Below are positions 823 through 58,393 of a DNA stretch of 64,000 nucleotides, piece after piece. The notes beneath the pieces were generated by a model. The model made no database searches. It was not told the DNA's origin and saw nothing but the letters and a program-made list of their open reading frames with translations. Each line of letters begins with the position of its first letter. Within the stretch, counting starts at the first letter, position 1. The position numbers were made by a program, and so were the translations under genes. Origin of the DNA: an uncultured Candidatus Saccharibacteria bacterium (GTDB lineage: Bacteria; Patescibacteriota; Saccharimonadia; Saccharimonadales; AWTP1-31); the NCBI GenBank assembly GCA_964629815.1, contig CAZVTA010000002.1, positions 2,096 through 66,095 on the forward strand, read 5' to 3'.

Positions 823-899
823 GTAGGGAAAAGAGAAGCCCGACAAATTTTCACACAAATTTGCCGGCGCGATGAGAAAAACCGTAGGTTTGTCTCATT
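823..899 (+). repeat. Structured two-hairpin repeat element, copy A (between tRNA-Ala and tRNA-Ile)
   Basis: Aligns with 57603-57683 through a shared core AAAGAG.AGCCCGA...CACAC...TTGCC(C)GGCGCGATGAGAAAA(A)CC...GGTT(T)GTCTCATT. Hairpin 1 is CAAATTT-TCACAC-AAATTTG. Hairpin 2 is ATGAGAAAAACC-GTA-GGTTTGTCTCAT. Confidence 0.6.
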
Positions 900-2417: not shown

Positions 2418-3915
<1,498 letters not shown>

Positions 3916-4042
3916 AAGAACTGATACTGTTTTACTTATAAAACTCAGTTTATGAACTGACGTTGATTTGCACTATTCAATTTTTAACGTTCATTTCCTT
4001 TAGAGACACTCTAAAACAGGCAATCCCAAAAGGTCTCCAGCC

Positions 4043-19440: not shown

Positions 19441-19778
19441 GTTGGGCTATCGGCTAATCGCCTGCTTTTACAGGAGGAAAGTCCGGGCAGCAACGGGAGA
19501 GGACAGTTGCTAACGGCAACCGGGGGTAACCCTAGGGAAAGTGCCACAGAAACCAAACCGCCTAACTATTGTTAGGTAAGGGTGAAACGAGCGAGGTAAG
19601 AGCTCGCATTTTATGTCGGTGACGGCAAAAAACGGTAAACCCTGTCCGCTGCAAGGAGATGCATCAAGCACAAGACTCCCACTTTGATGCATCACAAGAA
19701 CCGCTCGATCTACAGAGTAATCTATAGACTAGATAGATGATTAGCTAAAACAGAACCCGGCTTACGGATAACCCAGCA
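19441..19778 (+). ncRNA. rnpB: RNase P RNA, bacterial type A
   Basis: Contains GGAGGAAAGTCCGGGC near the 5' end and ACAGAACCCGGCTTA near the 3' end. P1 forms between GTTGGGCTATC and GATAACCCAGC. An extended -10 TGGTATAAT (19426-19434) sits 7 nt upstream. Confidence 0.9.
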
Positions 19779-19784
19779 CCTAAG

Positions 19785-56528: not shown

Positions 56529-57602
56529 ATGAGTTTATCTATCGGTATAGTTGGGTTGCCTAATGTTGGCAAGTCTACCCTGTTTAACGCACTCACAGAT
56601 GCAGAAGCGTTGGCTGCGAATTATCCGTTTGCAACCATTGAACCAAACACCGGAATTGTACCCGTCCCCGATGCACGTTTGCATGCATTGGCCGAGCTAT
56701 ACCAATCGCAAAAAATAGTACCCGCCACCGTAACATTCGTAGATATCGCAGGGCTTGTTGCTGGCGCCAGCCAAGGCGAAGGCCTTGGTAACCAATTCTT
56801 AAGCCACATTCGCAGCACTAATGCCATCGTACATGTAGTACGCGCCTTTGATGACAATGATGTCGTGCACGTAGACACCGAACATAACCCCAAAAAAGAT
56901 ATCGAGACAATCAATACAGAGCTAATCTTGGCCGATATACAAACGCTTGAAAAACGATTACCAAAATTTGAAAAAGAAGTACGAGCTAACGCCAAGCTTA
57001 AACCAGTTCTCGATACATACCAAACTATACTAACCGCACTCAACGAAGGCAAACTCGTAAGCCAGCTCGACTACGAGCACGAGCATATTACCGACCTACA
57101 CCTTATTACCGCAAAACCCGTTATTTATGCATTTAACGTTGATGAAGCAGGACTCACCGACCACTCGAAGCAAAAAGAGCTGCAAGCACTTGTGGCGCCC
57201 GCCCAATGTGTATTTATTTGTGCCAAGCTCGAGAGTGAATTGCGCGGGCTCGATGAATCAGACCGCGTGGAACTATTGGAAAGCTATGGACAAACAGAAT
57301 CGGGCCTGGTGCAACTGATCGCCGCGGCATACGACACACTCGGACTACAAAGCTACCTTACTGCTGGCGAGCAAGAAATTCGCGCCTGGACAATACCTAA
57401 AGGCGCCACCGCCCCACAAGCTGCTGGCGTCATCCATGGCGACTTTGAAAAAGGCTTTATTGCAGCGCAAGTGGTTGACTATAATGACCTGATTGACGCT
57501 GGCTCTGAGCAAGCAGCAAAAGCTGCCGGCAAGGTTCGCACCGAAGGCAAAACATACACCATGCAACCGAACGACGTTGTCGAGTTTCGCTTTAACGTTT
57601 AA
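56529..57602 (+). CDS. ychF: Ribosome-binding ATPase YchF
   Basis: Start moved to MSLSIGIVGLPNVGKSTLFNALT (G1 motif). Also has DIAGLV and NVDE, plus a C-terminal TGS domain ending MQPNDVVEFRFNV. Confidence 0.93.
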   Translation: MSLSIGIVGLPNVGKSTLFNALTDAEALAANYPFATIEPNTGIVPVPDARLHALAELYQSQKIVPATVTFVDIAGLVAGASQGEGLGNQFLSHIRSTNAIVHVVRAFDDNDVVHVDTEHNPKKDIETINTELILADIQTLEKRLPKFEKEVRANAKLKPVLDTYQTILTALNEGKLVSQLDYEHEHITDLHLITAKPVIYAFNVDEAGLTDHSKQKELQALVAPAQCVFICAKLESELRGLDESDRVELLESYGQTESGLVQLIAAAYDTLGLQSYLTAGEQEIRAWTIPKGATAPQAAGVIHGDFEKGFIAAQVVDYNDLIDAGSEQAAKAAGKVRTEGKTYTMQPNDVVEFRFNV

Positions 57603-57683
57603 GTAGCTGGAAAGAGCAGCCCGAGCAAAAATCACACTTTTTGCCCGGCGCGATGAGAAAACCATTTTAATGGTTGTCTCATT
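57603..57683 (+). repeat. Structured two-hairpin repeat element, copy B (inserted after ychF)
   Basis: Aligns with 823-899. Hairpin 1 is GCAAAAA-TCACAC-TTTTTGC. Hairpin 2 is ATGAGAAAACC-ATTTTAAT-GGTTGTCTCAT. Confidence 0.6.
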
Positions 57684-57689
57684 ACTGTG

Positions 57690-57733
57690 CCATGCAACCA
57701 AACGACGTTGTCGAGTTTCGCTTTAATGTTTAG
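57690..57733 (+). repeat. Duplicate of the last 44 nt of ychF (displaced gene end)
   Basis: CCATGCAACCAAACGACGTTGTCGAGTTTCGCTTTAATGTTTAG versus 57559-57603 CCATGCAACCGAACGACGTTGTCGAGTTTCGCTTTAACGTTTAAG. There are two substitutions, both synonymous in the ychF frame, and the stop changes from TAA to TAG. Confidence 0.85.
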
Positions 57734-58393
57734 CTAGGCCGCTTGCCAGTTGTCGACAAGGTTTTGAATAGTTTGTATAACCGTTTCGTGCGACGGCATG
57801 CGGTTGTCTTCGTAATAATGGTCGGCACCCATGTAGTTGTCGACGGTCGACAAACAATACAGTTCGTCTGCAAGTAAGTGCATTTTATCGACAGCGCCAA
57901 TGTTGGCGACTGGCACTGCAATAACAATCTTTTTTACTTTTATAGACTTTAAATACAACTTGGCCGCTTCGAGCGAAAAGCCCTTGCCCAGACCATCTGC
58001 CACCAATATAACGACACGGCGCTTAACAAGGTCTCGACGAATAATTCCATGTCGACCCAACAACCGGTGCATAGCACTAAGCTTGTCGCGTTTGTCCTGT
58101 TCGAAAAACTGGTGATATTCCATATCGAATTCTTCTATCTGCCCTGGACTGTACGACGAGTTGTACGTATAGCCACCATCTTGGTTAATACTAGCCACTT
58201 CTTCCGGTTCACCAGGAGCGTTAATAGGCTCTGCCATAAGTAATGTCATGACACAGTGCAAACGCGCGGCAATTTGTGCGCCCACCACAACACCACCATC
58301 TGATAACGCTACCACGGCACATTTTTCTTTTTTATAATGTTCGAGTTTCTCGGCAAGAAGTTTGCCAGCCTCTACACGACTATTGAAGTACAT
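57734..58393 (-). CDS. Phosphoribosyltransferase-family protein
   Basis: 219 aa. PRPP-binding-type motif VVILVADGLGKGFSLEAA. The N-terminus is typical of the 'putative phosphoribosyl transferase' family. Confidence 0.7.
   Translation of the reverse strand: MYFNSRVEAGKLLAEKLEHYKKEKCAVVALSDGGVVVGAQIAARLHCVMTLLMAEPINAPGEPEEVASINQDGGYTYNSSYSPGQIEEFDMEYHQFFEQDKRDKLSAMHRLLGRHGIIRRDLVKRRVVILVADGLGKGFSLEAAKLYLKSIKVKKIVIAVPVANIGAVDKMHLLADELYCLSTVDNYMGADHYYEDNRMPSHETVIQTIQNLVDNWQAA

Follow-up and report, generated by a model that had tools for sequence, protein, structure and literature searches.

The 64,000-nucleotide (nt) stretch of DNA analyzed here (the window) is from an uncultured Candidatus Saccharibacteria bacterium (GenBank assembly GCA_964629815.1, contig CAZVTA010000002.1, positions 2,096 to 66,095 of the forward strand) and contains two copies of a small, non-coding, two-hairpin element. 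These belong to a previously uncatalogued family, which probably, though by no means certainly, consists of small non-autonomous mobile elements that are specific to Saccharibacteria, generate long target duplications of variable length, and have a fold that is under selection in the single strand. The family is of the small-mobile-repeat type, but stands out in its RNA-like conservation of structure, its probable triple helix, and the great length of its target duplications.

A family of structured elements in Saccharibacteria

An initial annotation of the window had reported the two copies at 823-899 and 57603-57683, and both are present on the + strand, with bounds from a covariance model (R1) of 825-898 for copy A (74 nt; 89.9 bits, E value of 3e-24) and 57606-57682 for copy B (77 nt; 84.7 bits); the third-best match in the window scores only 17 bits. 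A 17-mer common to both copies occurs twice where 0.1 occurrences are expected, at least two matches are seen in none of 100 shuffles, and the pairwise likeness of the copies is far beyond chance. All of the shared blocks described earlier are found (AAAGAG.AGCCCGA, the TCACAC loop, CCGGCGCGATGAGAAAA, and GTCTCAT), as is the exchange of hairpin 1 from CAAATTT/AAATTTG in copy A to GCAAAAA/TTTTTGC in copy B. In predicted folds supported by pair counts, copy A has a 5' purine tail GGGAAAAGAG (826-835), a helix P1 (838-842 with 865-867 plus 869-870, C868 being bulged) that encloses hairpin 1 between positions 838 and 870 (844-850/857-863, loop 851-856), and a second hairpin, P2 (872-883/887-898). 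The corresponding features of copy B are the tail GGAAAGAG (57609-57616), P1 (57619-57623 with 57646-57648 plus 57650-57651), hairpin 1 (57625-57631/57638-57644, enclosed by P1 at 57619-57651), and P2 (57653-57682), all likewise on the + strand. Copy B indeed lacks one A-T pair of P2 and retains the internal A.G mismatch (A878.G892 in copy A; A57659.G57676 in copy B). We note that the A-run of the copy B tail is also one A shorter than that of copy A, a feature absent from the initial annotation, and that its three A's fit the P2 that is one pair shorter.

The family extends well beyond the window. A scan for the pattern GCCCGA-N14-28-GGCGCGATGAGAA in one genome per species across 185,579 species matched at least 120 loci, and among the matches listed about 85 loci contain the full element, all of them in metagenome-assembled genomes (MAGs) of Candidatus Saccharibacteria/Saccharimonadales; the other matches listed are chance occurrences in GC-rich genomes and lack the flanking blocks. 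Up to three copies are present per 8-kb locus (loci are given here by L numbers), and one locus has a tandem pair. The proteins encoded in the window have their best matches, at 40 to 78% identity and in syntenic runs, in element-bearing loci of Saccharibacteria MAGs. The family had not been recognized from sequence, and it has no match at threshold in Rfam 15; gathering-mode scans of the window and 18 loci return nothing at the element, and only rRNA, tRNA, RNase P, and S-adenosylmethionine (SAM) riboswitch matches elsewhere. With a permissive E value (E <= 10), neither copy matches a ribozyme, riboswitch, signal recognition particle RNA, or transfer-messenger RNA, and the best match of both is the full-length minus strand to RF01697 (Chlorobi-RRM) at 22.2 and 20.5 bits, compared with a gathering threshold of 45. 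A resemblance to the hammerhead core (GAUGAG...GAAAC), compared by eye, was rejected, as C3 and U4 differ, stem II is absent, and a G is at the cleavage position. A phage or plasmid origin was also rejected, in that a 15-mer scan of IMG/VR gives 45 matches, all by chance and none with the flanking blocks, and BLAST searches of plasmid and phage collections give no match to the element. Literature searches on Saccharibacteria RNA motifs, target-site duplications, and miniature inverted-repeat transposable elements (MITEs) yielded no account of the element.

Saccharibacteria (TM7) are episymbionts with reduced genomes and are thought to be poor in mobile elements. A structured, mobile 75-nt element without transposon-like ends points to either an undescribed mechanism of insertion or a host enzyme used for transposition. 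The family is also a candidate addition to the catalogues of RNA families, which currently lack it, and may be usable as a lineage marker, with insertion polymorphisms serving for strain tracking.

Conserved fold and a predicted triple helix

Model R1 was built from 78 copies, and the structural counts are from 94 copies with E < 1e-6 in 673 kb of sequence (the window plus the loci). Standard pairing is present in 95.2% of cells, and there are 321 compensatory cells compared with 91 +/- 12 in shuffles, of which none in 500 reaches the observed value. Changes on both sides are seen at 17 of the 23 pairs, and moving the structure by one to three columns gives only 41 to 54% pairing. The compensatory changes seen initially between two copies are thus borne out by strong covariation among 94 homologues, which supports the selection on structure proposed from them. 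The core is ∼74 nt and is sharply bounded, running from (A)GGGAA to GTCTCAT. P1 is formed by GCCCG/CGG-C-GC with the bulged C, and in five copies has covaried to GCCGG/CCG; hairpin 1 is very variable, with several types recurring; and P2 has 11 to 13 bp and, in about 85% of copies, contains the A.G mismatch. Counts of G.U/U.G pairs and A.C/C.A combinations in the well-aligned helices are 22 and 8, which favors the + strand as the one that folds, though a single column accounts for 12 of the 22. Some 17 copies (∼1/5) have a GC mini-hairpin, with G(A/G)A as its triloop, after the core, and in L056, L099, L102, and L128 this hairpin is part of the inserted unit.

Read in mirror image, the 5' purine tail, GGG-A(n)-GAG, corresponds to the P2 purine strand, GAG-A(n+1)-CC, in copy A as elsewhere in the family, and the lengths of the two A-runs covary, being 2/3 in 26 copies, 3/4 in 3, 4/5 in 42, and 5/6 in 6. 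There are four exceptions, which resemble substitutions or single-base deletions rather than coordinated changes of length, and in one diverged copy the tail (AAGGAG) and P2 (GAGGAA/UUCCUU) are altered together. The additional A in P2 faces the A.G mismatch, so that the tail has as many A's as that segment has A-U pairs. A mirror repeat cannot be templated by a polymerase, which leads us to infer that tail and P2 are in tertiary contact, the simplest form being a triple helix in which the tail docks on P2. This would be of the purine motif if the + strand folds, or of the U.A-U/C+.G-C type if an RNA of the reverse strand does, and the covariation of tail and helix makes it a directly testable prediction.

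A few copies depart from the common form. L170 (6785-6917, - strand) has ∼55 nt inserted inside P2, the element in L096 (91-209) is expanded to 119 nt, and that in L123 (1455-1542) has a longer insert in place of hairpin 1. In L132 (∼3270-3392), a full element is closely preceded by an orphan GGGAAAAGAGCAGC fragment.

Target duplications and empty sites

Copy B had been placed inside a duplication of the 3' end of ychF, and this is the case. The gene (56532-57602, + strand, with the Pfam domains YchF-GTPase_C and MMR_HSR1) retains a functional 3' end in the left copy of a 43-nt repeat (57559-57601; stop codon 57600-57602), and the displaced end is in the right copy (57690-57732, + strand; pseudo-stop TAG 57731-57733), which is abutted by a convergent phosphoribosyltransferase gene (57734-58393, - strand). 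Between the repeats and the conserved core are short fillers at the left (57602-57608) and right (TACTGTG, 57683-57689) junctions. The repeats differ at two positions in 43, and the stop codons (TAA and TAG) differ just past the repeat; all three differences are synonymous.

Whether other copies are similarly flanked was examined across the family. Flanking direct repeats exceed the 99th percentile (11) of mismatched-flank controls for 20 of the 94 copies; four of these reflect similarity between two tRNAs, and the remainder are mostly 24- to 50-bp repeats of the interrupted locus, with at least 15 copies residing in such long repeats. Three of these are perfect (50/50 in L103, 48/48 in L099, and 44/44 in L116), and the others include repeats of 37 nt (L125 and L075), 33 and 30 nt (the two copies in L081), 32 nt (L153 and L108), 31 nt (L083), 30 nt (L101), 26 nt (L056), 25 nt (L158), and 24/24 (L128), together with an additional case of 21 nt in L170. 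The repeated DNA is always the end of a gene. When it is the 3' end the element is in the sense orientation, as with ychF in the window, an alaS-like C terminus (L099 and L108), L103, and L081; when it is the 5' end, from or near the ATG, the element is antisense, as with lepA-like (L056, L153, and L158), bipA-like (L125), tpiA (L075 and L101), msrA (L116 and L102), and cysteine-desulfurase-like (L083) genes.

In the 5'-end cases, the displaced gene start to the right of the element retains a -10 box, mostly 5 to 9 nt from the ATG, and the displaced starts in L056, L153, L083, L116, and L075 have no Shine-Dalgarno sequence; from their sequences, the lepA, tpiA, msrA, and cysteine-desulfurase-like genes were apparently leaderless prior to insertion. 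In the intact gene copy, the junction filler now provides a good Shine-Dalgarno sequence. These insertions thus rewire gene starts, parting leaderless genes from their promoters and supplying a new Shine-Dalgarno sequence at the junction, and gene ends are changed too.

Several observations bear on how the copies arrived at these sites. The same site is occupied by elements with different types of hairpin 1 at the alaS end (L099/L108), tpiA (L075/L101), lepA (L056/L153/L158), and msrA (L116/L102), and near-identical cores are found in unrelated flanks (L058/L130 at 97%, L103/L063 at 93%, and window copy A/L152 at 92%), with the similarity ending exactly at (A)GGGAA and GTCTCAT. Fillers between core and repeat vary between copies (2 to 33 nt on the left and 4 to 26 nt on the right), and templates sought for them in the loci examined gave only chance 10- to 14-mers; the right filler of copy B, TACTGTG, equals the 6-nt spacer before tRNA-Arg in L121 plus the first G of the tRNA. 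L081 (70-271) has tandem elements of different subtypes separating three copies of one gene 3' end, indicating two successive insertions at one site; tandem double insertions and one nested insertion are represented among the copies.

Empty sites are seen at orthologous positions. In a protein-guided scan of 80 metagenomic loci coding for YchF orthologues (57 to 79% identity), the element follows ychF in only one (L170, with a different hairpin 1) and is absent from the sequence available for 78; the remaining locus was excluded, as its contig ends with ychF. The two element-free loci that were inspected (L166 and L167) each have a single ychF 3' end, and the duplication in the window is thus tied to the insertion. 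As a check for strain-level polymorphism of the window copies, we searched an exact-match protein index for the window YchF and phosphoribosyltransferase, and both are absent from it.

Association with tRNA and 5S rRNA leaders

The element also populates the leaders of stable RNA genes. Copy A lies between two tRNA genes, as had been noted, with tRNA-Ala(TGC) at 727-803 ending 21 nt upstream and tRNA-Ile(GAT) at 902-978 starting 3 nt downstream, all on the + strand. It is thus a leader or spacer inside a small operon, which a promoter-like site (TTGAAA-17-TACAAT, 683-711, + strand), identified by its match to consensus, would drive through tRNA-Ala, copy A, and tRNA-Ile, and which is closed by a terminator-like hairpin with a T-run (980-1010, + strand). 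Among the 94 copies, 27 are followed at 3 to 12 nt (mode 6) by a tRNA gene on the same strand, with 14 isotypes represented, whereas only one abuts a tRNA in the opposite orientation. In L097 (3791-3985, - strand) the spacer between the 23S and 5S rRNAs contains a copy whose end is 4 nt from the start of the 5S rRNA, on the same strand. The leaders of tRNA-Arg, tRNA-Met, and tRNA-Pro are each occupied in several species, and the genes adjacent to elements comprise tRNAs, 5S rRNA, ychF, tpiA, lepA, msrA, and alaS.

At many of the copies in tRNA leaders, a -10 box (TATAAT or TACAAT) and then CCCCTGTT are found 15 to 40 nt upstream of the element, and in leader promoters of L049, L055, L094, L098, L133, L154, and others, CCCCTGTT or CCTCTGTT starts 2 to 3 nt past the -10 box. 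These boxes suggest that the + strand is transcribed there as part of a 5' leader. A class A RNase P RNA is encoded in the window (19442-19780, + strand), and tRNA leaders are thus presumably RNase P substrates in this organism. In L170 the octamer CCCCTGTT directly abuts the start of the element, just past the ychF stop codon.

Using a rough open reading frame caller, by which both neighbors were called for 68 copies, the upstream and downstream genes are oriented +,+ in 31, -,+ in 21, -,- in 13, and +,- in 3, such that convergent settings like that of copy B are rare. Two further readings of this context were rejected. The element is not a boxA, as the boxA-like GCUCUUU is only on the strand opposite to that of the tRNA and 5S rRNA context. 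Nor is it a promoter, as the variation in the hairpins is compensatory, consistent hexamers are absent from the interior, and promoter-like sites are upstream of the element.

A model for insertion and the evidence weighing against it

We propose that the conserved unpaired blocks and the fold are probably recognized by trans-acting machinery in a single-stranded intermediate, either RNA or single-stranded DNA (ssDNA). Insertion is at staggered target breaks 24 to 50 bp or more apart, thereby duplicating a long stretch of target, with short and variable fillers left at both junctions; copy B is such an insertion, placed in the final 43 bp of ychF. In these compact genomes, three classes of insertion survive: those in tRNA and 5S rRNA leaders, where the element would be co-transcribed and presumably removed during 5' processing; those at the extreme ends of genes, where the duplication regenerates an intact gene; and those directly ahead of gene starts. 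The initial annotation had offered three candidates, and of these the mobile element is directly supported by the duplications and empty sites, a processing signal is supported in part through the tRNA and 5S rRNA placement, and a free-standing small RNA has gained no specific support.

A number of observations weigh against mobility. There are no terminal inverted repeats, the ends being GGGAAAAGAG... and ...GTCTCAT, and the apparent copy number is low at a few per genome. No autonomous parent was found, in that 5' and 3' halves separated by 0.1 to 4 kb are absent from the 8-kb loci examined, as are a transposase, a reverse transcriptase, and a larger element with the same ends. The tRNA-leader copies lack flanking repeats, and several are in the same tRNA-Arg leader, behind an opposite-strand tRNA-Ser, in different species; such copies may be old, vertically maintained, and functional for the host. 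A host function would likewise be consistent with the strong conservation that the unpaired blocks show across many species.

The divergence between repeat copies is a further difficulty. With reading frames set by hand from the gene sequences, the differences between paired repeats are 44 synonymous and 14 non-synonymous, contrary to what insertion followed by neutral decay predicts, and a model in which one repeat copy drifts neutrally has a p of about 0.02. The pairs are mostly synonymous in window copy B, L101, L102, L108, L153, L158, and others; two of the synonymous differences are serine switches from TCN to AGY, and the non-synonymous changes are concentrated in the first few or last few codons. 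The truncated copy thus looks to be constrained as protein-coding sequence. The bias could stem from recombination with empty alleles in the population, frequent and precise excision mediated by the repeats, gene conversion, or the truncated copy being translated. An open reading frame from the displaced gene-start copy in L153 and L066 (7737-7809) spans the whole element, and its TAA/TAG stop overlaps the intact start codon, suggesting translational coupling. The duplicated gene-end fragments may stay functional through frequent precise excision, or through translational coupling or bypass.

Alternative functions of the element

The alternative that fares best is that the element is a cis-acting host RNA, a leader or spacer for the processing, stability, or transcription of a downstream tRNA, 5S rRNA, or mRNA, with only incidental mobility and occasional duplication. 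We give this a minor though real chance. The close and same-strand placement before tRNAs of many isotypes and before a 5S rRNA, the promoters upstream of leader copies, the recurrence in the same tRNA leaders in several species, the scarcity of copies between convergent genes, and the strong sequence conservation of the unpaired blocks are all in its favor. However, most tRNAs have no element, including six of the eight in the window; about a dozen copies are antisense to the neighboring gene and others follow stop codons; copy B is between convergent genes with nothing downstream to serve; and the downstream genes do not evidently fall into one class. Moreover, that insertion events have occurred is shown by the long target duplications and by the sharp ends of the core. 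A riboswitch or other class of cis-regulatory leader was rejected, as the element is found in both orientations, its neighbors range over tRNAs of 14 isotypes, 5S rRNA, and unrelated protein-coding genes, and some copies follow stop codons.

It is improbable that the element is a small RNA acting in trans through its conserved single-stranded blocks, either as a free-standing gene or as a leader released by RNase P. The conserved fold, the invariant unpaired blocks, and the several copies per genome are consistent with this, and cleavage by RNase P at the tRNA 5' end would presumably free an RNA of ∼90 to 110 nt. But there is no consistent promoter or terminator belonging to the element, many copies lie within transcription units of other genes or antisense to them, complementarity to a target was not identified, and the flanking duplications are left unexplained.

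Still less probable is a minus-strand cis-regulator or terminator akin to Chlorobi-RRM, in which two hairpins are followed on the reverse strand by the pyrimidine tail GCUGCUCUUUUCCC; this tail could engage the first hairpin in a U.A-U/C+.G-C triplex, base-pair to a nearby Shine-Dalgarno sequence, or serve as a weak terminator tail. In Rfam, both window copies match RF01697 best, at full length, the minus strand folds with lower z-scores, and the mirror repeat is compatible with the pyrimidine triplex motif, a common one in RNA. A terminator scan flags the P1/hairpin-1 stem with GCU(G/U)CUCUUU in both copies (840-867 and 57621-57648), that of copy B being downstream of the convergent phosphoribosyltransferase gene, and about 11 copies have a minus-strand gene beginning within ∼35 nt of the left end, Shine-Dalgarno sequence and start codon included. 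However, the RF01697 scores are below half of the gathering threshold, no genes coding for RRM proteins are adjacent, and the taxon is different. The wobble counts favor the + strand, and it is on the + strand that 27 tRNAs and one 5S rRNA follow the element and that promoters are found upstream. An ordinary intrinsic terminator or chance pair of palindromes, which the UUUU at the end of copy A and the convergent setting of copy B might suggest, is in effect refuted by the 94 homologues with invariant unpaired blocks and covariation, which are not terminator features, by the neighbor orientations (3 of 68 convergent), and by most copies having no + strand U-tract; on this strand a UUUU tail is seen in copy A only, and the minus strand gives a weak match.

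Comparison with known mobile elements

MITEs and small bacterial repeats (Correia/NEMIS, RUP, ERIC, and REP/REPIN) are small, dispersed, hairpin-forming elements mobilized in trans. The mobile element favored here is like them in being below 150 bp, non-coding, intergenic or at gene ends, hairpin-forming, and dispersed in several copies; as generally understood, co-transcription with neighboring genes and mobilization in trans would be shared as well. As in classical MITEs, small non-coding copies are dispersed and differ in presence at orthologous sites (78 of 80 orthologous ychF loci carry none), but terminal inverted repeats and a short, fixed duplication are lacking. The ends are asymmetric, junctions have fillers, copy number is low, duplications are variable at 24 to 50 bp instead of fixed at 2 to 10 bp, and conservation is RNA-like, with covarying helices and invariant loops.

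Eukaryotic short interspersed nuclear elements (SINEs), which use target-primed reverse transcription, are generally regarded as short, non-autonomous units of structured RNA with asymmetric ends, and share with the element variable-length target duplications, junction filler, and a link to tRNA transcription units. Variable duplications here flank a structured unit that is likely transcribed, as judged from promoter-like sequences. In contrast to SINEs, the element has no 3' A-rich or repeat tail and no 5' truncations, its ends are sharp, and no partner reverse transcriptase was identified in the loci examined. We know of no bacterial example of a SINE-like target-primed mechanism. A bacterial SINE-like element, with a leader RNA or ssDNA of ∼75 to 110 nt, associated with tRNA units, recognized through its triplex fold, and copied by retrotransposition or template switching to give the 24- to 50-bp duplications, is put forward as a rather unlikely, more specific form of the mobile reading, and would be a novel type of transposable element in bacteria. 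The start of L170 with CCCCTGTT and the identity of the copy B filler to the L121 spacer plus G hint at such a transcript-bounded intermediate.

PATEs derived from IS200/IS605, and REP elements with their RAYT transposases, are generally known for single-strand hairpins, specific flanking nucleotides, and asymmetric ends, all of which recall the element. These systems make no target duplication, use a fixed tetra- or pentanucleotide target, and have two similar end hairpins, whereas the element has long duplications, unlike hairpins, and no common flanking tetranucleotide that is evident. Among RNA families, RF01697 is similar to the reverse strand of the element in having two hairpins followed by a CUCUUU-type tail, but membership is not supported; scores are below the 45-bit threshold, the strand is opposite to the tRNA and 5S rRNA context, there are no RRM genes nearby, and the hosts are of another phylum, being Saccharibacteria, the element not being in 5' untranslated regions of Chlorobi RRM-domain genes. 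The sole documented bacterial precedent that we found for long, variable target duplications is the IS1634 family, including IS1549, with duplications of 8 to 514 bp (PMC2266710). Insertion of these likewise gives direct repeats that are long and variable in length, but IS1634-family elements are 1.5 to 2 kb with terminal inverted repeats and a DDE transposase, and no such ends or gene were seen in the 8-kb loci examined here.

Other features of the window

RNAs identified in the window with Rfam are the 5' end of a 23S rRNA, a 16S rRNA, the RNase P RNA, and eight tRNAs; a SAM riboswitch is encoded in one of the related loci (L158, 407-524, + strand). The rRNA operon has an odd layout. The 16S rRNA gene (2419-3917, - strand) is 2.1 kb from the 5' end of the 23S rRNA gene (1-303, - strand), with two open reading frames on the same strand between them, one coding for a HAD hydrolase (1002-1649) and the other for a 148-amino-acid product with no assignment (1665-2111). 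The tRNAs that are usual in the spacer (Ile and Ala) are on the strand opposite to the rRNAs and form a separate small operon.

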